A stretch of 64,000 nt of DNA from sequence record PV577658; one strand, written 5' to 3'. The notes under the pieces are model-generated. The model made no database searches and had not been told where the DNA came from. It saw only the letters and a program-made list of their open reading frames with translations. Below, piece by piece: positions 4,074 through 58,619 of this stretch (positions are counted from its first letter, which is position 1; each line of letters begins with the position of its first letter). The translations under genes were made by a program, and so were the position numbers. The DNA is from Escherichia phage vB_EcoS_MM-2.

Positions 4074-6860
4074 GTGTTCTCAATCCTACAAGGTCATGCA
4101 GGATTTCATCGCGATTTAGCCACAGGCATTTGGCGAGAAGTTAAAGCAGAAGACTATCTTTTTGCTAAAAGATTTTCCTCAAAGCATCCTGAAGGTAAAC
4201 CAGCTTCAATGCCCTTCAAGTTTGATGTAATTGATGAAGTTGATCCTCAAACCCTAGTAGAAATGCTCCCTCTTATGAGACGTTTAACGTCTGACCCTCA
4301 TATCGTTGCGGTACGAGGTCGATGTCTTGCACCCAAAAATAATGTGCGGCGTAAGAAGGGCAACTTTAATGTATCTAACCCAAGTCATATAATTGCAATG
4401 GACGTGGATGGTATTGTAGATACAGGTGGTTGTAACAAGTTTGATCTTGTTGGCATGGCTCGACATATTATTAGAATGTTAAATAGTATTAGTGAGGATA
4501 TGTTTCCTCTTGATGCAGGGTTTATTGCTCATGCATCGTCTTCGGCTGGGCTAAAACCAGGTATCCGAATGCACTTAATACTAGAATCTAATGTTAAAGT
4601 AACTCAGGGTCAAATCAAATTCTTATTTACATCTATCAATGAAAGTAGTAGACAAAAGTATGGCTTTGATATTGCCGACTTAGCTTATTACTCTTCCGTA
4701 CAGCTCCATTATTTTGCAGATCCGTTATTTACCGATGGTATAGTAGATCCGTTTAAGGCGGAGGGTGCTTCACGTCTGGTATTTGTTAAGGGTTCTAAAG
4801 TAAACTTACCTAATAATCTGGTTGACTATGAAACAACTAGAGGTGAGTTTAAGGAGGAGTTTTACTCTTTACTCGATCAAATTAAAGGTAAAAAAGCTGC
4901 CTCCGATAAAGTAGAGGAAACTATCAGCGAACTAGAAGAAGCTGAGGATGGAGTGTATCTACGTATCATACCTAAACTCTATCACAGAGCTTTAGAGGAT
5001 GGTGTTGATTTTGCATGGCTAGAAAAAGAAATCCGTCCAGCCTTATCAGAATATATTGCAACCAAAGATAATAGTCGTAATATTCAAGATTACTTTAATA
5101 ACGGTCGTAAACAGGCTCTGAAAGCATTTGTTAATAATTCTAAACGCGATATACCTGATGTTTTAAAAGGTATTCCACTTAAAAAGCTAGAAACTAACTC
5201 TCTAGAAACTGATAACTTCTTGAAATTAAATACTGTACCACCAGAAGGTTATATGACTTTTGTAAAAGCAAGTCTAGGTACAGGTAAAACTACGGCGGTT
5301 GTGCGTTGGTTAGATTCAGGAGTTATTAAAGGTAATTTCTTAGCAATTACCAATACTCGAGCACTGGTATCTTCAAATGCTAAGAAATTTAGTGCAGGAC
5401 AATATGATAAGTCTGTAGATATGCTTAATTTTAAGCGTGGTGCTATTGACCGTATGTCCACAACTATTCACTCTTTGCATAAGTTCAAGAGTTTTATTGG
5501 TCAAATCGATGCAATCTTTATAGATGAATGTGATGCTGTAATGAATGACCTATTATTCGCCCCGGTTGTTAAACAACGTCGTGAATGTATTCAGGTTCTT
5601 CGGGATATTCTTGCAACTGCAAAAATCATTATATTATCTGATGGGGATATTAGTGCAGAAACAATTGAAGCATATGGTTCTTTAATTGAGTTTGATAAAC
5701 CGGTTGCATTTTATAATCATCACCGAAAAATGCTATCAAAAGCTCATGCCTACGAGTTCCCTGATGAATCCAGTATTTGGGTTGCACTTCAGACTTCTCT
5801 AGAGATGGGTGAGAAATCTATCCTAGTATCTGACTGTGGGCCGGATGAACTGAATGAGAAGGGCATGGCGTTGCGTCGTAATACGGGTGCGTTAGTTAAG
5901 GAAATCCACTCAAACTCTACGTCTGATGTAGATATTCGACGTATTCTGGATTACACAACTAATGAGTTAATTGACCAACAAATTGATTGCTTATTATGTA
6001 GTCCATCCGTAACGAGTGGTGTTGACTTCAACTATTTTGATAACGTATTCGTTATTACTAGAACCAGTAACCAAGCGCCAAACATGCGTTTTCAAGCAAT
6101 CAGGCGCGACCGTGGTGCTCAGAACATTTATTATTTTATTGATAAATCTACGAGTGGATTCTCCGCAGGCTCTGAACAATATAATATTGATGAAGGTTGG
6201 CTGGAGTTAGCACAGCAATTATACGCACGTCGTAGGGAGCTGGAGTCTAGGAACTATACTAGTACTTTACGTTATTACTTGCTTGATCAGGGTGCAACTA
6301 TTGATATTTTCAGTGAAAGCTGGGGAACTATCGAAGGTGCAGGTAAAGAGTATACAGAAGAGCGAATCAAAGCCATTTTGTATTCAACTCCTGATTATTG
6401 TGCTCCACGCCATGCAGATGCATATGAAGCTAAACTACTTCTTGTTCGCTATTATCATCTTGAGTCTATTAAAGATGTAACAGTTGAGCATGTTGAGCAA
6501 TACATTAAGGATAAACCGAATGATCGAGCGGCATTCTTCCATAAAATGCACGAGATGTTCTGGGAAGATATTAAGAAGTGTTCAAATGTCACTATCAAAC
6601 CATTCATAGAAGCTCTGAAAGGCAAGAAGAAAGATTTCTTCCTTAAAACAGGTCAGAGTGCTAACCCAAAATATGCCAGAATGTATCTTGGTATGATGGG
6701 TATTGGCAAGGATATGAACACGGAGAATATTGTAGACTGGTACAGAACTTATTGTAAAATCGAGTGTATGCCAATTCCTTTCAAATTCATGACAGAGGAA
6801 GAGAAGGCTATGGCAGAAGAAGTACTGTCCGAACTTGGAGCAACTAATGAAGACGCATAA
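3996..6860 (+). CDS. large P-loop NTPase / helicase, putative replication initiation or origin-binding protein (probable start GTG ~4074)
   Basis: Walker A LGTGKTT and Walker B FIDECD; AGGAG RBS 7 nt before an in-frame GTG at ~4074; about 930-954 aa. Confidence 0.6.
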   Translation: MTVTVVLFFLNSPKENLFHFQHRSIVVFSILQGHAGFHRDLATGIWREVKAEDYLFAKRFSSKHPEGKPASMPFKFDVIDEVDPQTLVEMLPLMRRLTSDPHIVAVRGRCLAPKNNVRRKKGNFNVSNPSHIIAMDVDGIVDTGGCNKFDLVGMARHIIRMLNSISEDMFPLDAGFIAHASSSAGLKPGIRMHLILESNVKVTQGQIKFLFTSINESSRQKYGFDIADLAYYSSVQLHYFADPLFTDGIVDPFKAEGASRLVFVKGSKVNLPNNLVDYETTRGEFKEEFYSLLDQIKGKKAASDKVEETISELEEAEDGVYLRIIPKLYHRALEDGVDFAWLEKEIRPALSEYIATKDNSRNIQDYFNNGRKQALKAFVNNSKRDIPDVLKGIPLKKLETNSLETDNFLKLNTVPPEGYMTFVKASLGTGKTTAVVRWLDSGVIKGNFLAITNTRALVSSNAKKFSAGQYDKSVDMLNFKRGAIDRMSTTIHSLHKFKSFIGQIDAIFIDECDAVMNDLLFAPVVKQRRECIQVLRDILATAKIIILSDGDISAETIEAYGSLIEFDKPVAFYNHHRKMLSKAHAYEFPDESSIWVALQTSLEMGEKSILVSDCGPDELNEKGMALRRNTGALVKEIHSNSTSDVDIRRILDYTTNELIDQQIDCLLCSPSVTSGVDFNYFDNVFVITRTSNQAPNMRFQAIRRDRGAQNIYYFIDKSTSGFSAGSEQYNIDEGWLELAQQLYARRRELESRNYTSTLRYYLLDQGATIDIFSESWGTIEGAGKEYTEERIKAILYSTPDYCAPRHADAYEAKLLLVRYYHLESIKDVTVEHVEQYIKDKPNDRAAFFHKMHEMFWEDIKKCSNVTIKPFIEALKGKKKDFFLKTGQSANPKYARMYLGMMGIGKDMNTENIVDWYRTYCKIECMPIPFKFMTEEEKAMAEEVLSELGATNEDA

Positions 6861-7365
6861 ACCAATGCCTCCTATGGCATTTATCCTAGAAAAGCTTAGG
6901 TATGACGAAAGTACTGGGGACTTAATTTGGTTATCTGGCCCAAGGAAGGGAAAGGTAGCGGGCTCCAAAATGAAAACTGGGAGACAGCTAGAGTTTATGA
7001 TAAATGGGGGGCGGACAGCTTACTTAGCCCATAGAATAATCTGGTTTATAAAGACAGGTGAAGATCCTGGAGATAAAACTATTGACCATAAAGACGGTGA
7101 TAGTTTAAACAACTTGTGGGATAATTTACGTAAGGCTACCTATTCCGAAAATGGAAAGAATAAGAAGTGTTCTACTAATTCTACCGGATTCACTGGAGTT
7201 GTAAAACGAGGTAATAGGTATATGGCCTACGCTTACTGCGATGGAAAGCAACATATTTTTGGTAGACGAGATACCCCGGAAGAAGCCCATCAGCTATACC
7301 TTAGGGGAGTTAAAGAGCTGTTTGGTGAATTTAATCCCTCGGAGAGATATGACAGTGAAGAATAA
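6835..7365 (+). CDS. HNH homing endonuclease with AP2-like DNA-binding domain
   Basis: IDHKDGDSLNNLWDNLRKATYSEN (HNH); GFTGVVKRGNRYMAY (AP2-like); start overlaps the 3' end of the upstream gene. Confidence 0.7.
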   Translation: MEQLMKTHKPMPPMAFILEKLRYDESTGDLIWLSGPRKGKVAGSKMKTGRQLEFMINGGRTAYLAHRIIWFIKTGEDPGDKTIDHKDGDSLNNLWDNLRKATYSENGKNKKCSTNSTGFTGVVKRGNRYMAYAYCDGKQHIFGRRDTPEEAHQLYLRGVKELFGEFNPSERYDSEE

Positions 7366-8616: not shown

Positions 8617-8660
8617 TTGCTTAATCCTATAATTCTTGATATAATATTCTCATAGTTTGA
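8617..8660 (+). promoter_or_regulatory. early promoter (TTGCTT-17-TATAAT)
   Basis: ttgctt..tataat followed by attctcatagtttgaaag, a variant of the downstream box. Confidence 0.5.
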
Positions 8661-9149: not shown

Positions 9150-9446
9150 ATGACCAAAGCTGAAATTATCGCACAATGTGAAAAATTTGGTGAGTTTTAT
9201 CTTCATTACGAGAAACTTCGTCAGAAAGGAACCACGTATCTTCAGGGTACGATGGAATTTGATCCAGCCCAAGATAAATATCTAGCTGAGCGTATTAAAC
9301 GTGAACGTATTCGTAAAGCGAAAGATGATGAGATCCTTGTCTTCTCTCGTACTAATGATAGCTTCCGTTTTATTCCTGTCGAAAAAGTCCGTCGTGTGAC
9401 TAGCCTCCAATCAGAGTTAGATCGTGCTTCTCCAGTAGGCCGATAA
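9150..9446 (+). CDS. hypothetical protein
   Basis: Track ORF followed by a terminator hairpin. Confidence 0.4.
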   Translation: MTKAEIIAQCEKFGEFYLHYEKLRQKGTTYLQGTMEFDPAQDKYLAERIKRERIRKAKDDEILVFSRTNDSFRFIPVEKVRRVTSLQSELDRASPVGR

Positions 9447-9456
9447 GAAACCAATT

Positions 9457-9478
9457 AGCCCCTATATGGGGCTTTTTG
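9457..9478 (+). terminator. rho-independent terminator
   Basis: agcccc-tatat-ggggct hairpin followed by ttttgtg. Confidence 0.6.
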
Positions 9479-9496
9479 TGTATTTGGGATATGTAA

Positions 9497-9805
9497 ATGA
9501 GCGAACAGGTAAATCAAAACTATGAAGGACACGTTGATGACCAGTCCATCATACTTTGGGAGAAGGAGGGAGAACAAGTAAGATTAACAGTATCTGAATT
9601 TCGTGGGAATCTATACATGGGTATTCGTTACTGGCTTCTTGATATTAATGATGAGTGGTTTCCAACGAAATCTGGCTTCTCTTTTCCTTACACCCTAGAA
9701 ACAACATCACAGCTTTTCTATGCGTTTACACAGATTCTTAGCGAATCTGAGGTTTTACATGAAGTACAGAAACGAGCTGAAGAACTCAAAGCCAAGAATG
9801 CCTAG
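9497..9805 (+). CDS. hypothetical protein
   Basis: Track ORF; stop codon lies in the loop of the following terminator hairpin. Confidence 0.4.
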   Translation: MSEQVNQNYEGHVDDQSIILWEKEGEQVRLTVSEFRGNLYMGIRYWLLDINDEWFPTKSGFSFPYTLETTSQLFYAFTQILSESEVLHEVQKRAEELKAKNA

Positions 9806-9818
9806 TTCTTGGCTTTTT
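9791..9818 (+). terminator. rho-independent terminator
   Basis: gccaagaa-tgcctag-ttcttggc (8-bp stem) followed by tttttcttt. Confidence 0.6.
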
Positions 9819-9832
9819 CTTTATAAATGTAC

Positions 9833-9880
9833 TTGCTTTCAACTCAGTTTTGTTATATAATATTTATATAAATTAATGAG
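9833..9880 (+). promoter_or_regulatory. early promoter (TTGCTT-17-TATAAT)
   Basis: ttgctt..tataat then atttatataaattaatgagag downstream box. Confidence 0.55.
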
Positions 9881-9891
9881 AGGGTTGCAAA

Positions 9892-10164
9892 GTGAAAAAG
9901 ATAAGTATAAGTACACTTAAACCTTTCCCGTACATCGGACAGCCTCTTATACTTATGTGGGAGGAGAAGATTAATGGGGAAAAGTATACTAAAACTAGAA
10001 GTGGGTATAAGCTGACTTCACTTCATTACGAAAAAGAAGTATTAGTAGCTGAAATATACTCTCCGTTGTCAGATAGGCTAGTAAAAACTACATATTTGCA
10101 TCGTTGCAAAAATTATACATGGCACGGATCCACTAGACAACCCTCATACTGTGAGGCAGAATAA
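9892..10164 (+). CDS. hypothetical protein (GTG start)
   Basis: Track ORF beginning at gtgaaaaag. Confidence 0.35.
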   Translation: MKKISISTLKPFPYIGQPLILMWEEKINGEKYTKTRSGYKLTSLHYEKEVLVAEIYSPLSDRLVKTTYLHRCKNYTWHGSTRQPSYCEAE

Positions 10165-11136
10165 ATGACCAATGTAAAAGACTTTATTAAACGCTGTCAA
10201 GAAGCATATTATCAAGGTATGTCTTTAATCTCTGACGAAGAATATGATCGTCTGATTAAAAGATTTCCGTTAGAAGAAGAGATCGGGCCTAAGGGCGATA
10301 TTCCACATCTGTATCGTATGTATTCTTTACAGAAAGTTTATTATAATCGTGGAGATAAACCCCCGTTTAACCCATTAGGTCAGGTAGAAACTGATAAGTT
10401 AGATGGTTGTGCAATTTCTCTGTTATATATTAATGGCGAATTTGTTCAAGCACTAACTCGTGGTAACGGTATTCTAGGGAATGATGTCACAAGCAACGTA
10501 AGATTGCTGAACATCCCTAAAAAGATTTCCCAAAAAGTACCTACTCAAATCACTGGTGAAGTTCTAATTACAAAAGAAGTAGAAAATAAACGTAACTTTG
10601 CCTCTGGTGCTATTAACCTCAAAGATAGTGATGATTTTGTACAACGTATCGGAGAAGGTGGTTTAATCTTCGTTGCATATGGTATCCAGTGTTCTGCTGA
10701 ATCTGTAGGTATTACAGAAGCATATTTAAAAGATATGCTTTGGCTGGAGAATGAGAACTTCTTAACAGTTGTTAATGTGCGTTCTTTCTTTAAATGGATT
10801 CCGACGGACGGTAAAGTTGTTCGTATTAATGATAACAACAAATTCTTCCGTGAAGGCTGGACTAATAAATTCCCTCGTGGAGCATTCGCTATTAAAGAGG
10901 ATGAAGAAGGCGAGATTACAACTCTTACTAAAGTTGAATGGCAGGTAGGAGCTTCTGGTAAAGTAACTCCAGTTGGTTATTTCGAACCGGTAATTATTGA
11001 TGATGCTACAATTGTTAAAGCGACTCTTAATAACGTTGATTATATTAACTCTCTTGATCTAGAGATCGGTTGCCAGATTCGAGTGATTCGTGCTGGTGGT
11101 GTAATCCCGTGCATAGTAGAGCGAGTATATGATTAA
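10165..11136 (+). CDS. ligA: NAD-dependent DNA ligase, N-terminal subunit (adenylation domain)
   Basis: KxDG adenylation motif (TDKLDGCAIS), LTRGNG, and LigA-like layout. Confidence 0.75.
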   Translation: MTNVKDFIKRCQEAYYQGMSLISDEEYDRLIKRFPLEEEIGPKGDIPHLYRMYSLQKVYYNRGDKPPFNPLGQVETDKLDGCAISLLYINGEFVQALTRGNGILGNDVTSNVRLLNIPKKISQKVPTQITGEVLITKEVENKRNFASGAINLKDSDDFVQRIGEGGLIFVAYGIQCSAESVGITEAYLKDMLWLENENFLTVVNVRSFFKWIPTDGKVVRINDNNKFFREGWTNKFPRGAFAIKEDEEGEITTLTKVEWQVGASGKVTPVGYFEPVIIDDATIVKATLNNVDYINSLDLEIGCQIRVIRAGGVIPCIVERVYD

Positions 11137-11187
11137 TACATAGCCCTTTGCTACCCATCTACCATATCGGAATTATAAAGTGGTTAT

Positions 11188-11215
11188 TGACATTTTCGCC
11201 GCTTAGGTATATACT
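11188..11215 (+). promoter_or_regulatory. promoter-like element in the ligase inter-ORF spacer (TTGACA ... TATACT)
   Basis: ttgacattttcgccgcttaggtatatact. Confidence 0.4.
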
Positions 11216-11279
11216 ATTATCATTCAGTTGAGGGATAGAAAGTTATGGCGAGGGTAAGCAAAGTTAGTTAAAATTGTAG

Positions 11280-11330
11280 TTGCTAAATGCTTAAATACTT
11301 GTTATAATATTTATATAAATTGATAAGGAA
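11280..11330 (+). promoter_or_regulatory. early promoter (TTGCTA-17-TATAAT) upstream of the ligase C-terminal subunit
   Basis: ttgcta..tataat then atttatataaattgataagg; same family as the 9833 promoter. Confidence 0.55.
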
Positions 11331-11335
11331 GAAAT

Positions 11336-12118
11336 TTGATGAAAATCGAAATTCCAACACAATGTCCCTCTTGTGGTTCTAAGCTAGATCTTGTCAACGG
11401 ACAATTATTTTGTCGGAATAAGTCCAACTGTCCAGCGCAATCAAGTAAGTTAATTGAGAACTTCTGTACAAAAATGAAGTTAAAGGGCTTTGGTCCAAAA
11501 ACTATTGAAAAGCTGGAGCTGACGAAGATCTCAGAACTATTTTACCTAACCGAAGAAGATTTGGTTAGAGCCGTGGGTAGCAAGGTTGCCGCTAAGTTAA
11601 TTAGCGAATTAAATACTAAAGTTCGCGGAGACATTGACTTTGGTTCAGTTCTCGGTTCTTTAGGAATCCCTCTAATTGGAGAGGTTGCAGCAAAGAAATT
11701 ATCCCAAAATTGCACTAGCTTCCACGATGTGAAGGCTGACGGCAAGGCTGGAGAAAACTACAAAGCCTGGCTAAATTCCCCGCAAGGCAAGGATGTTATC
11801 GAACTACCGTGGAAATTCTCAACTGGTATTAAGGGCACTAAAGCTGACGTCATCATTACAGATGAATTAGTTGCCCAGCCAAATGGAATCGCGGTATGTA
11901 TTACCGGATCTTTGCAAGATTTTGCAAATCGAACGGATGCAACAAACTATTTAGAAAGTCTAGGGTATACGGTTAAGAAATCCGTTACCAAAGACGTAAA
12001 ATACCTGATCTGTGAGGATGAATCAAAACGTTCTTCCTCATCTTATAAGAAAGCCGAAACGAATGGGATAGAAATCCTGTCGATTAAAGAACTATTGGAG
12101 AAAAATAATAATGTCTAA
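11336..12118 (+). CDS. ligB: NAD-dependent DNA ligase, C-terminal subunit (Zn finger, HhH, BRCT-like)
   Basis: CPSCGSKLDLVNGQLFCRNKSNCPAQ Cys4 zinc finger typical of LigA; likely ATG at ~11339. Confidence 0.7.
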   Translation: MMKIEIPTQCPSCGSKLDLVNGQLFCRNKSNCPAQSSKLIENFCTKMKLKGFGPKTIEKLELTKISELFYLTEEDLVRAVGSKVAAKLISELNTKVRGDIDFGSVLGSLGIPLIGEVAAKKLSQNCTSFHDVKADGKAGENYKAWLNSPQGKDVIELPWKFSTGIKGTKADVIITDELVAQPNGIAVCITGSLQDFANRTDATNYLESLGYTVKKSVTKDVKYLICEDESKRSSSSYKKAETNGIEILSIKELLEKNNNV

Positions 12119-12878
12119 ACTGAACTGGAACGTAGAAGGTGTAACCGAGTCTCTGAAAGCAAAAGCCACTGCTCTGGGTGTTTCTGTAATCTCTCAAGAA
12201 CAAGTAGCTGCTATCGCTGCTGAACTGGCTGCTGAAACTGGCAAAGATGTTACTGCTCGCTCTGTTGGCTCTAAACTGCGTAAAGAAGGTTTTGAAGTAC
12301 AGAAAGCTAACGAAGTACAGAAATCCCCGTGGACTCCTGAGCAGGAAGCTGAACTGGTTGATTTCCTGAACGCTCATGCTGGTCAGTATACCTATGCTGA
12401 AATCGCTGCTGCTGTAGCTGGTGGTCAGTTCGGTGCTAAACAGGTACAGGGTAAGATCCTGAGTCTGGAAATGACCGCTTCTGTTAAACCAACTGAAAAA
12501 GCTGCTGCTGTTCGTTCCTTTACTCCGGATGAAGAAACTGATTTTGTTAATCAGGTTGTTGCTGGTGCTACTATTGAAGCTATCGCTGCTCACTTCGGTC
12601 GTAATATCAAGCAGATCCGTGGTAAAGCTCTGAGCCTGCTTCGTGAAGGTCGTATCGCTGCTATGCCGGTACAGGAAACTTCCAGTGCTAAAACTCGTGA
12701 AGATCTGTTAGAAGGTCTGGATCTGGTTAACATGACTGTTGCTGAGATCGCTGAGAAAACTGGTAAGTCTGAGCGCGGTGTTAAATCTATGCTGTCTCGT
12801 CGTGGTCTGGTTGCTAAGGACTATGATGGTGCCGCTAAGCGTGCTAAACTGGATGCAAAAGCTGCGGCTGCTGAATAA
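12111..12878 (+). CDS. abundant DNA-binding protein with four tandem HTH-like repeats (possibly D5-like)
   Basis: Four ~30-aa repeats of the form (V/Y/I)..(I/Q)(A/V)A..(A/G)....G.......G(S/K).L...G; strong codon bias suggesting high expression. Confidence 0.45.
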   Translation: MSKLNWNVEGVTESLKAKATALGVSVISQEQVAAIAAELAAETGKDVTARSVGSKLRKEGFEVQKANEVQKSPWTPEQEAELVDFLNAHAGQYTYAEIAAAVAGGQFGAKQVQGKILSLEMTASVKPTEKAAAVRSFTPDEETDFVNQVVAGATIEAIAAHFGRNIKQIRGKALSLLREGRIAAMPVQETSSAKTREDLLEGLDLVNMTVAEIAEKTGKSERGVKSMLSRRGLVAKDYDGAAKRAKLDAKAAAAE

Positions 12879-12885
12879 TCTGGTA

Positions 12886-12930
12886 AATTAAACCTAAGGG
12901 GAGGGGGCTATGCTCCTTCCCCTTTTTGCA
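12886..12930 (+). terminator. possible attenuating terminator hairpin
   Basis: G/C-rich imperfect hairpin aaggggaggggg..tccttcccc followed by tttttgc. Confidence 0.35.
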
Positions 12931-14433
12931 TTTAGAAGGCACGAAAGCGTGCAAAGGAGAATGACCTTGTTTAACGTGCAAGCTGTAGTGTTGAAGATGC
13001 TTCTAGCTTCTGAACAGAAGCAAATAGCATTGGAAACATTCTCAAAACTGCATAAAGATCATTTTAATGACGCTTTCTCCTCAATTTACCAAGCCGTCCA
13101 GAATTATTATAAAAAATATAACACAATGCCGTCCATTGACGCACTGATGCTTGAGGCTAATAGGAACGCCCGCCTTTCTCAAGCTCTAGTCGTTTTAGCT
13201 AACACTCAAATTCCAGAAGTGAGCATGGAACAGGCACTTGAAGTCCTAGAGGCCGAATATACACAGGATTTATTCCTAAAGCTTCTAGAAACAGACGTGC
13301 TTCAAGATTTAACAATGCTGGATCAGGGAGAAATTCTCAACCGAGTTGCCTCCCTTCACTTAAAATTAGAAGAGAAAGTAACGAATACTGGAAAAGTATT
13401 CAACGCAGATAACATGCGTATTTTCCAGAGAGAAGAAGATACCAAACTGAACCTAATCGCTCTTGGTATTTGTAATGAGTTCGACGCTCAAATTGGTTTA
13501 GCTCGCACAGAAACGTTACTGCTTGGTGGTTGGCGTGGTACTGGTAAATCCATTATCTGTTCAAACATACAGGTTCAGCAATATTTGAATGGAGATATTG
13601 CTCCATACTTCTCAATTGAGATGAAAGAACATGAAGTATTTAGACGTAATCTAGCCATGCTAGCTGGTGTATCAGCACTAGCAATGCGTAATAATACTCT
13701 AGAAGGTGCAGCTCTGTTGAGACTAGCCAGAACTAGAGCTAGGATGTTCAACGGTGGTGAAGAGCTTTTCGATAACTTCGTTAAACAGTATACAATGGCT
13801 AAGATGAGTGATTTCTACGATATGGAGAGTAAGCTAATAGAAGGGTATGAGCTACATACTCCTATGATTATTGTTTATGACCCTGAGTTGTCTATTACAA
13901 CAGTTGACGTAGAATTAAATAAATTAGTTGCTAGATATGGTGATAAAGTTACAGTAGCTCTACTTGACTATATTAACCAAACCCGACTTCCAGACTCTAA
14001 AACCATTGATATGTATGACTGGAAAGAACAGATGGTTGTTAGCTCGTCTTTCAAATCTATCTGCCAGAAACATAACGTGGCTGGCGTAGCTCCTTACCAG
14101 ATCGATCAAGACGGTAGAACACGTATGTCAAAGGGGATTCTTGATTCCGCAGACATGGCTGCTAATCTTAATGCTGCAAAAGCTGATAATGGTCAAGGTG
14201 CTATTATGTTTGACTTCGTTAAGACTCGTTCTTCTGATAGCGTGAAGTTTATGCCTAAAATGAACTGGGAAACTCTGCGAATGGATAACACTACCAACCT
14301 AGCAATGGAAGATATATCTCAAATGGAAGCTGAGTTCGTTATCCCTATTGAGAAGGATAAGCCGGCTCAACCTAAACGTGCTAAGAAAGACAAAGCTGAA
14401 AATTCAACAGGTGAACAGGCCAGCGATATATGA
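12910..14433 (+). CDS. DnaB-like replicative helicase (likely start at Met ~12961)
   Basis: Walker A-like GGWRGTGKS; RecA-like C-terminal region; AAGGAG RBS before the internal Met. Confidence 0.65.
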   Translation: MLLPLFAFRRHESVQRRMTLFNVQAVVLKMLLASEQKQIALETFSKLHKDHFNDAFSSIYQAVQNYYKKYNTMPSIDALMLEANRNARLSQALVVLANTQIPEVSMEQALEVLEAEYTQDLFLKLLETDVLQDLTMLDQGEILNRVASLHLKLEEKVTNTGKVFNADNMRIFQREEDTKLNLIALGICNEFDAQIGLARTETLLLGGWRGTGKSIICSNIQVQQYLNGDIAPYFSIEMKEHEVFRRNLAMLAGVSALAMRNNTLEGAALLRLARTRARMFNGGEELFDNFVKQYTMAKMSDFYDMESKLIEGYELHTPMIIVYDPELSITTVDVELNKLVARYGDKVTVALLDYINQTRLPDSKTIDMYDWKEQMVVSSSFKSICQKHNVAGVAPYQIDQDGRTRMSKGILDSADMAANLNAAKADNGQGAIMFDFVKTRSSDSVKFMPKMNWETLRMDNTTNLAMEDISQMEAEFVIPIEKDKPAQPKRAKKDKAENSTGEQASDI

Positions 14434-14963
14434 TAACACAGGAAAGGCTAAAAGAGTTATTTGATTACTCCCCAGGAACTGGGGAGTTTACTAGAAAAGT
14501 ATCTAGAGGTAATCAGAAAGCTGGTAGTATAGCTGGTTCTTTAAGAAAAGATGATTATATATGTATATGGGTAGATGGAAAGCCTTACTATGCGCATCAA
14601 CTAGCTTTTCTCTATATGGAAGGTTATTTACCTGAAGAAGTAGACCATATAAACCGTATACGAAGTGATAATCGTTGGGTTAACCTTAAAGATTCTTCTC
14701 ACCAAGAGAATAGCAGGAATAAAGCAGCTAAAAGTAAATCAGGGTATATAGGAGTTAGTTGGAATAAACAAAGGCAAAAATGGCAAGTTCAACTAAGAGA
14801 TACCAATAAAAAGAAAATATTCGGTGGATATTTTGAGTACCAGAATTTAGAATCAGCAGTAGATAAGATTAATAATCTACGATTACAATTTCATGGGGAA
14901 AATGCTATTCAAGAAATATTCGACCCGTCTAATTATCCTGCATTAGAGGAGATAAATTCATGA
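14430..14963 (+). CDS. HNH homing endonuclease with AP2-like domain
   Basis: EVDHINRIRSDNRWVNLKDSSHQEN (HNH); GYIGVSWNKQRQKWQ (AP2-like); ATGA overlaps with both helicase stop and primase start. Confidence 0.7.
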   Translation: MITQERLKELFDYSPGTGEFTRKVSRGNQKAGSIAGSLRKDDYICIWVDGKPYYAHQLAFLYMEGYLPEEVDHINRIRSDNRWVNLKDSSHQENSRNKAAKSKSGYIGVSWNKQRQKWQVQLRDTNKKKIFGGYFEYQNLESAVDKINNLRLQFHGENAIQEIFDPSNYPALEEINS

Positions 14964-15850
14964 GTAGAATAACAGAATTACTTGATCTTAAGGGAATTGA
15001 GTATAAAGATACTGGTGGAGATATTTTAATCTGTTGCTTAAATCCATATCATGATGATAAACACCCAAGTTTGCGTATTGATCCTGAAACCGGGATTATG
15101 CACTGCTTGAGTTGCGGTTTTGGCAAAGGTATACCTAGTATTTATCATTATTTTAATGAGACTCAATATAGACAATCTCCAAGACTATCCCAAGTACGTA
15201 AAAAGATTTCAGAGATTAGAAATGGATCTACGAATCTTGCAATCCCAGAATCTGCCTGCCTTTTCGAAGGTGATTTCCGAGGTATAAGTTCTAAGACCTT
15301 GAAGAAATATTTTGCTTTCCAACACCAAGAGAACTGGGAAGGCAGAATTGTATTCCCAATCACAGATGCTGTTGGACGCAATATCCTATTTTTGGGTCGT
15401 TCTATAAACAGTTCTGCCCCTCCTAAATACTTAGTAAAACCAAAACAGGTTTCACCACCAATTTTCCCTGTACGATATAATACTCCAGTTCTTATTCTAG
15501 TTGAAGGTATCTTTGATATGCTGAACCTAGAGGATAGTGGTATAGACTATGCTTCTTGCTGCTTTGGTACACATCAGTTTACTTCAGACAACATTGCAGA
15601 TAAGTTCAGTCCGTACATTATTGCTGGTGTTAAAGTTGTTGTTATCTTACTAGATAATGATGCTTCTGGTAATAAAGCTGCACAAGCACTGGCCAAGCTA
15701 ATTCGTACAAAAACGCGTTTAACACCTGTAGTTGCTAACTTTCTTCTGCCTGAAGGTAAAGACCCAGGTGACTTAAATAAAGAAGAAATTGATATGTTAG
15801 CAAAACGTATTGAAATTTTAGTTGCTGAATCGCTTAAAGATTTGGTATAA
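14960..15850 (+). CDS. DnaG-like DNA primase (zinc-binding domain plus TOPRIM)
   Basis: CCLNPYHDDKHPSLRID...HCLSCGFGKG zinc-binding motif; TOPRIM LVEGIFDMLNL and LLDNDASG. Confidence 0.7.
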   Translation: MSRITELLDLKGIEYKDTGGDILICCLNPYHDDKHPSLRIDPETGIMHCLSCGFGKGIPSIYHYFNETQYRQSPRLSQVRKKISEIRNGSTNLAIPESACLFEGDFRGISSKTLKKYFAFQHQENWEGRIVFPITDAVGRNILFLGRSINSSAPPKYLVKPKQVSPPIFPVRYNTPVLILVEGIFDMLNLEDSGIDYASCCFGTHQFTSDNIADKFSPYIIAGVKVVVILLDNDASGNKAAQALAKLIRTKTRLTPVVANFLLPEGKDPGDLNKEEIDMLAKRIEILVAESLKDLV

Positions 15851-15876
15851 TAGTCCTAAATAACTGAGGAGTTACT

Positions 15877-16208: not shown

Positions 16209-16240
16209 TTTGCTATTATCCCAATATTTTGATATAATAT
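16209..16240 (+). promoter_or_regulatory. early promoter (TTGCTA-18-TATAAT) upstream of the DNA polymerase gene
   Basis: ttgctattatcccaatattttgatataat. Confidence 0.5.
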
Positions 16241-52335: not shown

Positions 52336-52364
52336 TTGCTTTCATCCCTCTATTTTGCTATAAT
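52336..52364 (+). promoter_or_regulatory. early promoter (TTGCTT-17-TGcTATAAT) for the lipoprotein gene
   Basis: ttgctttcatccctctattttgctataat then agattcataaatt box. Confidence 0.6.
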
Positions 52365-58185: not shown

Positions 58186-58415
58186 AATATAAACTCCTAG
58201 TTATTTGGGGATTGTTCCGCATTACCTGCTAGAAAGTAACAGCAGGTAATAAGTAACAATCCGCTCGCCAATATAATCAATTTTAAAGAACTCCACGTAG
58301 GCCGCTATATCCCGTTAGGGGGCGGGATGCATTATGGTAAGCACCGACCGTCAAATTTTATCAAGTTATCGCTCTTATCGAACTGGGTACATCTTAAAAC
58401 CTATCGGCTAGGTTG

Positions 58416-58619
58416 TCAAACAATTTTTTGCAATTTTTTATGATTTTCTTTTAGGTCAATCATAATATTTCGCCAGATCATTTCCAGACCTTGCTGGCGA
58501 CCTTTCTTGTACTGCGTGAATCTATATCTTACTGATCTTTGAGCTACTGTCAACAAATTTTTTGTTTTGCTATCTAGTGCCTTAATAGGCTTGCCAGTGA
58601 TCAAAAGCGTTTGTTTCAT
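58416..58619 (-). CDS. hypothetical small basic protein
   Basis: 67 aa, Lys/Arg-rich; weak RBS. Confidence 0.3.
   Translation of the reverse strand: MKQTLLITGKPIKALDSKTKNLLTVAQRSVRYRFTQYKKGRQQGLEMIWRNIMIDLKENHKKLQKIV

Follow-up and report, generated by a model that had tools for sequence, protein, structure and literature searches.

Why should a phage carry its NAD+-dependent DNA ligase as two open reading frames with a promoter-bearing gap between them? The gap could be an intron or bypassed element, an accident of sequencing, the relic of a mobile gene, or a regulatory region in its own right. The question is raised by a stretch of 64,000 nucleotides from Escherichia phage vB_EcoS_MM-2 (record PV577658; the window), a T5-like coliphage (family Demerecviridae) whose ligase locus is 100% identical to that of Escherichia phage vB_EcoS_MM-1. 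Very probably, the locus encodes the heterodimeric NAD+-dependent ligase known from T5-like phages, with a gap made up essentially of two strong tandem sigma-70 promoters and a ribosome-binding site.

The names of the gap promoters derive from classical T5 promoter work. That the ligase is split and that its gap holds named promoters is already known, from public T5 records and annotation since 2004–2005: in T5 GenBank entries the gene names ligA and ligB are in use, and P-K 28b and P-K 28a are marked as promoters between the two. A 2006 paper attributes the T5 "split NAD+-dependent DNA ligase" to the 2005 genome paper. In the literature searched, nothing on T5 ligase biochemistry or gap transcript mapping was found beyond PMC1684257 and PMC3632103, and there was no transcript mapping of the ligA-ligB gap and no experiment on the ligase proteins or transcripts of this phage. 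What is added here is the shared break point, purifying selection on both halves, the promoter as the constant of the gap, and the likely additional transcription of ligB and D5.

Layout of the locus

The gene order is D3 / PC4-like / ligA / ligB / D5 / dnaB block. The genes and the signals that flank them are as follows.

9788..9816, + strand: terminator-like hairpin and T-run, ending the upstream unit after the T5.115/PC4-like gene
9833..9861, + strand: T5 early-type promoter TTGCTT-17-TATAAT, predicted from sequence, serving orf90 and ligA
9892..10164, + strand: orf90, an accessory 90-aa ORF whose stop codon adjoins the ligA start
10165..11136, + strand: ligA, ligase subunit A (323 aa), with predicted domain Ia, adenylation domain with K78-LDG, and OB fold
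11339..12118, + strand: ligB, ligase subunit B (259 aa), with C4 zinc finger, HhH and BRCT
12111..12878, + strand: D5, annotated in T5 relatives as D5 (DNA-binding protein/transcription factor)
12896..12924, + strand: strong terminator-like hairpin (13 pairs) and T-run, ending the ligB-D5 unit

The original prediction of a 199-bp spacer between two ligase ORFs was exact in its coordinates. The gap measures 199 bp to a TTG at 11336, which is an alternative start, and 202 bp to the ATG at 11339, which is used in most records and is preceded by an AAGGAAG ribosome-binding site. The start of D5 overlaps the stop of ligB by 8 nt, and D5 is therefore in the same unit as ligB. The outer signals have annotated counterparts: at the place equivalent to 9788–9816 a TransTerm terminator is annotated in AKFV33, AKFV33 and S114 both have a promoter feature at the site equivalent to 9833–9861, and a terminator is annotated in Spivey and Slocum at the place equivalent to 12896–12924. 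The occurrence of orf90, which matched no Pfam family, varies (T5_ev212 has it; AKFV33, S132 and S114 are without it).

Two halves of one ligase

LigA matches the Pfam families DNA_ligase_aden (PF01653, residues 47–200, E = 2.2e-23) and DNA_ligase_OB (PF03120, residues 252–321, E = 3.8e-22). The first ORF does end at 11136, as originally proposed, but it is the OB fold and not the adenylation domain that ends there. K78-L-D-G of LigA aligns with KVDG of the T. filiformis ligase, and the KLDG is invariant in 9 phages. In the LigA family, use of NAD+ is conferred by the N-terminal domain Ia with its signature Y..SDxEYD. The corresponding AYY..ISDEEYD of the phage LigA is kept in 9/9 phages, and the alignment to domain Ia of 1v9p is weak (3.2 bits).

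LigB has the zinc-finger cysteines C9, C12, C25 and C31, invariant in 53 sequences, and a BRCT domain (PF00533) at 33 bits against a Pfam cutoff of 21. Pfam matches to HhH are below cutoff; the AF2 model (pLDDT 91) resembles 2owo_A and 9hu3_B, the latter being its best fold match. Together the two products tile the 652 positions of TIGR00575 from end to end, LigA covering 4–378 and LigB 388–651. Their separate scores (174 and 107 bits) are both far under the equivalog cutoff of 444, and in place of the single polypeptide of that equivalog there are two ORFs in different frames with stops between.

In alignment to E. coli LigA (PDB 2OWO), the halves map to residues 284–390 and from 402. The C-terminus of LigA (...IPCIVERVYD) and the N-terminus of LigB (MKIEIPTQCPSC) are like those of all relatives. 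The break falls within the linker that joins OB fold to zinc finger, near residues 393–400 of E. coli LigA, and no more than a few linker residues are missing. The phage pair and bacterial LigA have their domains in one order (Ia, predicted in the phage, then NTase, OB, Zn, HhH, BRCT) and share the catalytic motif. The E. coli enzyme is one chain of 671 aa, whereas the phage proteins, as two chains, add up to 582 aa, their NTase and HhH regions being shorter.

Two of the closest known systems are from phages. The T5 genes (T5.116/T5.117; AAU05253/AAU05254) are the orthologous locus: 2.3 kb are 97% identical to T5-type genomes, and the two ORFs, the gap of 199–202 bp, the two promoter positions and the overlap with D5 are all as in the window. 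Differences are at strain level only, one instance being a 9-bp indel that falls in the disordered HhH-BRCT linker (LigB of 259 against 256 aa). The ligase of Providencia phage vB_PreS_PR1/PSTCR5, also of the Demerecviridae, shares break point, domain content and tandem promoters, the last within a gap of 192 bp, and is about 53% identical in amino acids overall. Against PDB 9HU3/9I5I, LigA aligns with chain A (E = 4e-104) and LigB with chain B (E = 5e-81). 9HU3, released 2026-01-14, is titled 'PR1 phage heterodimeric DNA ligase in complex with 21-mer nicked DNA containing phage nick sequence'. Structure and biochemistry exist for the PR1 enzyme, solved as two chains on nicked DNA, and the title of the entry points to joint sealing; the pair in the window is known from its sequence. 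The tiling of TIGR00575, the orthology to T5 ligA/ligB and the matches to the two PR1 chains bear out the two-subunit ligase that had been proposed.

By homology, LigA would take AMP from NAD+ through its nucleotidyltransferase domain, with K78 as the adenylated residue, and LigB would supply the DNA-clamping half that in bacterial LigA is covalently attached. The solved complex of the PR1 orthologue suggests that the two assemble non-covalently around a nick. For this particular pair we infer both the formation of the heterodimer and its activity.

The break point across T5-like phages

The 9 cultured Demerecviridae compared share one break point; their gaps span 185–1134 bp and the relative frames vary. 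Uncultured T5-like contigs are also split and have the same gene order. Across all T5-like loci examined, the gap runs from about 50 to 1134 bp. Purifying selection acts on ligA (dN/dS of 0.06–0.08) and on ligB (0.06–0.15) alike.

These comparisons bear on whether a single ligase gene has simply been broken by a sequencing or assembly error, or by pseudogene decay. The bare fact of the interruption speaks for such a break, and nothing more does. ligA and ligB are in different frames and there are several stops in each of the three frames of the gap, so a single sequencing error could not merge the ORFs. More than 1000 phage records, deposited by independent laboratories, show the identical split. 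Low dN/dS in both halves, and the invariance of the catalytic K-x-D-G and of the four zinc-finger cysteines, count against such a break as well. A sequencing error, named at the outset as what would overturn the two-gene reading, is ruled out by the stops and by the records; the comparative data have already refuted error and decay alike, and the probability left to them is negligible.

Fused forms do exist elsewhere. Compact single-chain relatives from metagenomes (555–578 aa; among them P0031, P0052 and P0104) are 33–41% identical to LigB over its full length and have an N-terminal half of LigA size. In P0031 a short linker joins OB fold and zinc finger (...IIPQVIGVEIKPLSRTVINLDINCPSC...). 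Among the best 150 clusters about 10 are fused, and stand-alone LigB-like clusters number more than 100. No fused orthologue was found in T5-like viral contigs, where 22/22 loci retrieved with P0031 as query are split or truncated.

What the gap contains

Four features of the gap are referred to below.

11137..11176, no strand: poorly conserved start of the gap, site of inserted DNA and ORFs in relatives
11187..11215, + strand: upstream gap promoter TTGACA-17-TATACT (11/12), equivalent to T5 'promoter P-K 28b'
11280..11308, + strand: downstream gap promoter TTGCTA-17-(TG)TTATAAT (10/12 and TG extension), equivalent to T5 'promoter P-K 28a'
11322..11328, + strand: ligB ribosome-binding site AAGGAAG, from sequence; Spivey and Slocum annotate an RBS at the equivalent place

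The two best-scoring promoter matches of the interval 9400–13000 both fall in the gap. The 8 promoter-like sites observed in that interval compare with 8.4 expected from shuffles, and since this total is not above chance, the scan by itself proves nothing. Support for the gap promoters comes from the conservation of their hexamers across genera and from the named T5 promoters in GenBank. From genus to genus the hexamers do not change, whereas the intervening bases do. Those of 11187–11215 are kept as far as Providencia phage PSTCR5, and the distance from this promoter to the ligB start, about 123–125 nt, is held in 5 other genera. The TTGnTATAAT of 11280–11308 is invariant in alignment A1; this site is 1 of 5 T5 early-type sites that the window has, every one of them on the + strand, and has 19 identical bases (TATAATATTTATATAAATT) in common with the promoter at 9833–9861.

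The gap is 95–99% identical in 425 records. P-K 28b is named in AY692264 and S114, and P-K 28a in AY692264, S114 and AKFV33. The AY692264 (T5 st0) features 58311–58385 and 58404–58478, when placed by their offset from the ligA stop and the ligB start, correspond to about 11167–11241 and 11260–11334 of the window and contain the two gap sites. In the T5 st0 record the P-K labels stand without a qualifier, while others carry 'putative promoter'. Together with work by Gentz & Bujard in 1985, in which P-K28a/b were reportedly characterised experimentally, this contrast of labels suggests that the two promoters may have been established by experiment. The two promoter-like elements first noticed in the spacer thus correspond to named T5 promoters with conserved hexamers. 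A mini-ORF after the first of them (MARVSKVS, about 11246–11272) was set aside for want of conservation in Spivey, Slocum and PSTCR5.

A hairpin had also been placed in the spacer, and this did not hold up. The only inverted repeats present are palindromes rich in A and T that overlap the -10 of the downstream promoter; the fold of the gap is no better than that of shuffles (z = -0.33), and the candidate was rejected both as a hairpin and as a terminator. No terminator-like site was found within 10165–12118, gap included.

Could the gap instead be a group I or II intron, or an element bypassed in translation, such that one polypeptide is made? Phages do have group I introns in genes of DNA metabolism, and LigA and LigB of the phage run colinear with the bacterial enzyme. 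The check by covariance models that had been suggested was carried out with Rfam: a scan of 10900–11600 at E <= 10 gave no intron model (only two noise matches to sRNA models), no family reached its gathering score over the whole window, and group I/II introns were rejected. As originally noted, the spacer does not encode an intron ORF: the + strand of 11137–11335 is without an ORF of at least 30 aa. Besides the unremarkable fold, intron and bypass are opposed by the gaps of relatives, which range from about 50 to 1134 bp with differing relative frames and unrelated inserted ORFs, by the ribosome-binding site and ATG that ligB has of its own, and by the PR1 orthologue, solved as two chains and titled 'heterodimeric'. 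A single polypeptide is thereby made extremely improbable.

Constant and variable parts of the gap

Conservation is unevenly distributed along the gap. The promoter block (11177–11335) exceeds the coding regions in identity in S132 (98% against 90–95%), Spivey (79% against 68%) and Slocum (68% against 59–64%), but not in PSTCR5, the most distant relative (55% against 58–59%). Identity to the window in 11137–11176 is 20/40 in S132, 16/40 in Spivey and 8/40 in PSTCR5, and at the equivalent place S132 carries an insert of 159 bp in which there is a 64-aa ORF. Of the gap content, only a consensus promoter directly 5′ of ligB recurs in all T5-like loci examined; in several uncultured relatives the gap consists only of a promoter (11–12/12) and a ribosome-binding site. 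Inserted gap ORFs are always upstream of the promoters.

Such inserts recall genes that are split by mobile elements. In Aeromonas phage Aeh1 (nrdA-a/mobE/nrdA-b) a free-standing homing endonuclease splits the gene, and the products of the adjacent ORFs reassemble. The likeness is that of an essential enzyme of DNA metabolism encoded as two adjacent ORFs; the difference is that the gap in the window is without an endonuclease gene and that what stays constant there is a promoter and no mobile gene. The ligase could nonetheless have been split by insertion of a homing-endonuclease gene that was later lost. HNH endonuclease genes are present between other replication genes of the phage, and gap ORFs with a T5orf172 domain, which is related to GIY-YIG nucleases, are weakly indicated in two uncultured T5-like contigs only (L017, 22.1 bits against a cutoff of 20; L026, below cutoff). 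A homing endonuclease was rejected for the inserted ORFs of Kamaji, Ceto, 70E37-2 and S132: none has a nuclease domain by Pfam or PHROGs, and one of them is DprA-like. The inserts differ by lineage, lie upstream of the conserved promoters and look secondary, and with no endonuclease gene in the gap of the window, a homing origin is unlikely.

Transcription of ligB and D5

The C-terminal half had been proposed to be separately transcribed. The promoters 5′ of ligB stand, but separateness was overstated, there being no terminator-like site after ligA. Transcripts from 9833–9861 should for this reason also reach ligB. The early promoter there would drive ligA, its transcript probably running on into ligB, and P-K28b and P-K28a, back to back, would add initiation for ligB and the overlapping D5, as far as the terminator at 12896–12924. 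On this sequence evidence, ligB and D5 are probably transcribed additionally, not exclusively, from the gap promoters. Read-through from ligA to ligB is expected only in so far as no intrinsic terminator is predicted there, and Rho-dependent termination could intervene; use of the promoters in vivo is a prediction too.

The gap promoters may chiefly serve D5, or the dosage of downstream products, with the split marking the boundary of a transcription unit, not a matter of ligase chemistry, and excess LigB acting alone as a nick- or DNA-binding protein. D5 begins ahead of the ligB stop codon, and a strong terminator closes the unit after D5. The consensus promoter is the only thing constant in the gaps, some uncultured gaps being promoter and ribosome-binding site alone, and no insert is downstream of it. 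An independent role for LigB is purely hypothetical. Such a use of the promoters, a possibility although not the expected one, is compatible with a heterodimeric ligase and is not opposed to it.

That the promoter is the only invariant content of the gap suggests that the fission is tied to it. Tentatively, and with rather more doubt, the ligase gene may have been split, and kept split, by the transcription start of ligB-D5 located within the linker that separates OB fold from zinc finger, with LigB made in excess over LigA and possibly having a role of its own at the nicks of the phage genome.

Significance

As a discovery the split carries little weight. A real split gene and its promoters could nevertheless be recovered by reading raw sequence, and the locus is a clean natural case of an enzyme working in two pieces. 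The constancy of the promoter, and the confinement of inserts to its upstream side, provide a testable idea of why the split persists in T5-like phages.

Two ligase genes and the break between them

The 2.3 kb around ligA and ligB is 100% identical in phage vB_EcoS_MM-1 (PV577657.1), and 95-97% identical in hundreds of Tequintavirus/Epseptimavirus genomes, T5 derivatives included. The original prediction placed an NAD-dependent DNA ligase in two ORFs, 10165-11136 and about 11336-12118, and these limits are exact. The second ORF can be read from a TTG at 11336, but an ATG at 11339, preceded by an AAGGAAG ribosome-binding site, is the ligB start in most records. The two reading frames differ, and the 199-bp gap between the ORFs has several stops in each frame.

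10165-11136, + strand: ORF1 (ligA), 323 aa
11339-12118 (ATG) or 11336-12118 (TTG), + strand: ORF2 (ligB), 259 aa from the ATG

It had been proposed that the adenylation domain ends at 11136. That domain (PF01653) is indeed in ORF1, but Pfam places the OB fold (PF03120) there also, and the boundary needs correction accordingly. In ORF2 four cysteines are invariant across 53 homologues, the BRCT domain is clear and helix-hairpin-helix (HhH) matches are weak. ORF1 covers positions 4-378 of the 652 in the NCBI LigA profile TIGR00575 and ORF2 covers 388-651; against E. coli LigA, ORF1 stops near residue 390 and ORF2 picks up at 402. The break is thus placed by alignment as a clean cut in the OB fold-zinc finger linker. 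The AlphaFold model of LigB has a pLDDT of 91, with 9hu3_B as its best fold match. (Its HhH-BRCT linker, residues 166-179 at about 11834-11875, is the sole low-confidence part, with pLDDT below 50, and varies among strains through several substitutions and a 9-bp indel, LigB being 256 aa long in T5_ev212 and 259 aa here.)

Distribution of the split

The break point was compared in nine cultured Demerecviridae, representing Tequintavirus, Epseptimavirus, Sugarlandvirus, Priunavirus, Cetovirus, two Serratia phages and a Vibrio phage. All nine have the same LigA C-terminal residues, ...IPxIVERVYD/E, and the same LigB N-terminal residues, MKIEIPTxCPxCGS, while their gaps measure 185-1134 bp and the frame of ligB relative to ligA varies. 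Strong purifying selection acts on both genes (dN/dS 0.06-0.15 wherever synonymous sites are unsaturated). The shared split and this selection rule out a single ligase gene broken by error. With the concatenated protein as tblastn query, the two-piece arrangement is found in all matches listed, down to 47% identity; other phage NAD+ ligases, most of them from jumbo phages, are single-piece and below 30% identity. Uncultured T5-like contigs with the gene order D3, PC4-like, ligA, ligB, D5, dnaB also have a split ligase.

A phmmer search with LigB covered all 1.84 billion cluster representatives. The stand-alone proteins that it found, about 235-265 aa long, fall into more than 100 distinct clusters; compact single-chain forms (555-578 aa) account for only about ten of the best 150 clusters. 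Judged from these counts, the split form is the common state in the compact phage ligase lineage. Five metagenomic proteins of 555-578 aa (P0031, P0052, P0086, P0090 and P0104) are single-chain compact relatives of LigA plus LigB, with a short linker at the T5-like break site.

A promoter-bearing gap

Of all promoter matches in 9400-13000, the two that score best lie within the gap. In total that interval has as many promoter-like sites as expected from shuffles, and by itself the scan is no evidence.

11187-11215, + strand: upstream gap promoter, TTGACA-17-TATACT
11280-11308, + strand: downstream gap promoter, TTGCTA-17-TATAAT with TG extension

When the gap is aligned with those of six other phages, the −35 and −10 hexamers of both promoters stay invariant as far as Providencia phage PSTCR5 and the bases separating them vary, the footprint to be expected of working promoters. 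Beyond T5-type genomes, the block 11177-11335 is better conserved than flanking coding DNA in three of four comparisons: S132 (98% against 90-95%), Spivey (79% against 68%) and Slocum (68% against 59-64%). In the most distant, PSTCR5, it is 55%, not above the coding 58-59%. The T5 st0 record (AY692264) has 'promoter P-K 28b' and 'promoter P-K 28a' between ligA and ligB, other promoters there being labelled only 'putative'; mapped by offset, these features contain both gap sites. The genomes of Salmonella phage S114 and AKFV33 carry annotations for the same promoters. Hexamer conservation and annotation together bear out the two promoter-like elements first proposed.

The downstream promoter is of T5 early type and has 19 identical bases (TATAATATTTATATAAATT) in common with a promoter at 9833-9861, 5′ of orf90-ligA. 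The early-type pattern with extended −10, TTGnnn-N14-15-TGnTATAAT, occurs five times in the window, on the + strand only: 8617-8645, 11280-11308, 15822-15851, 16210-16238 and 52336-52364. The first resembles the classical T5 promoter P-D/E20 and lies upstream of D3.

A hairpin had also been proposed for the gap; no notable hairpin, unusual folding energy or terminator-like site was found in it. Nor is it an intron: with the limit relaxed to E <= 10, Rfam covariance models matched no intron or other family there. No Rfam family reaches gathering score across 1-64000. No tRNA genes were found in these 64 kb, which places the T5 tRNA cluster outside the window.

Inserted DNA and neighbouring genes

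The first 40 bp 3′ of the ligA stop are poorly conserved, and this is the site of extra DNA in relatives.

Salmonella phage S132 (L004, NC_048010.1), 2803-2997: unannotated 64-aa ORF, its ATG overlapping the ligA stop
Serratia phage Kamaji (L007), 1858-2472: 204-aa ORF, family unknown
Vibrio phage Ceto (L008), 1769-2748: 73-aa ORF and DprA-like 187-aa ORF
Vibrio phage 70E37-2 (L009), 1757-2217: two ORFs, 98 and 43 aa

All are upstream of the conserved promoters; that of S132, in a 159-bp insertion, has no Pfam family. Despite the inserts the tandem promoters adjoin ligB, at distances of about 123-125 nt and 29 nt to the ligB start. In the short-gap uncultured loci inspected, the gap of about 50-90 nt is a promoter (scoring 11-12 of 12) and ribosome-binding site. 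In both kinds of locus, what stays constant in the gap is a promoter adjoining ligB. The gap of Salmonella phage 1-23 is enlarged much like that of S132 (tblastn span 2107 bp). Two uncultured T5-like contigs have homologous gap ORFs of about 120 aa (L017, 1312-1674; L026, 5556-5924), the first matching T5orf172 at 22.1 bits (cutoff 20) and the second below cutoff; a mobile, nuclease-like gene may be making use of the gap here. The L026 gap also holds a DUF6552 ORF.

9892-10164, + strand: orf90, 90 aa, its stop abutting the ligA start
about 6847-7365: HNH endonuclease gene between 'replication origin binding protein' and 235-aa 'helicase' (PV577657.1 annotation)
about 14430-14963: HNH endonuclease gene between dnaB and primase, 4-nt overlap with both (PV577657.1 annotation)

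No family was detected for orf90, which occurs here and in T5_ev212 and is missing from AKFV33, S132 and S114. Its region is a variable accessory slot. Phage phA11 (L002, 666-866) has an extra 66-aa ORF between orf90 and ligA.

A two-chain enzyme and its expression

PDB entries 9HU3/9I5I match LigA with chain A (4e-104) and LigB with chain B (5e-81). 9HU3, released 2026-01-14, is entitled 'PR1 phage heterodimeric DNA ligase in complex with 21-mer nicked DNA containing phage nick sequence'. Providencia phages PR1 and PSTCR5 match its chain B sequence at 100% identity. These matches, with the same split in relatives, uphold the two-subunit reading. By homology, LigA would take AMP from NAD+ on K78 and LigB would supply the DNA-binding half (zinc finger, HhH and BRCT), the two probably closing around the nick as separate chains like the PR1 complex. 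Archaeal LigN cut down to Ia+NTase+OB retained self-adenylation (PMC1684257).

Transcription of ligA would start from the predicted promoter at 9833-9861, 3′ of a terminator at 9788-9816. No terminator-like site was found after ligA, which makes read-through into ligB likely. Additional transcripts would start at the gap promoters and serve ligB and D5 (the D5 start overlaps the stop of ligB), and the ligB-D5 unit would end at a strong predicted terminator, 12896-12924. The C-terminal half had been called separately transcribed; it does have its own upstream promoters, but given likely read-through plus this added initiation, 'additionally transcribed' fits better.

The split ligase and its gap promoters are real, correctly read except for hairpin and domain boundary, and already known; a 2013 paper gives ligA and ligB by accession (PMC3632103). 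The sole modestly new point is comparative: what the gap conserves is a promoter, not a mobile gene or RNA structure. This suggests, rather than shows, that the fission is kept because the ligB-D5 transcription start sits in the linker.
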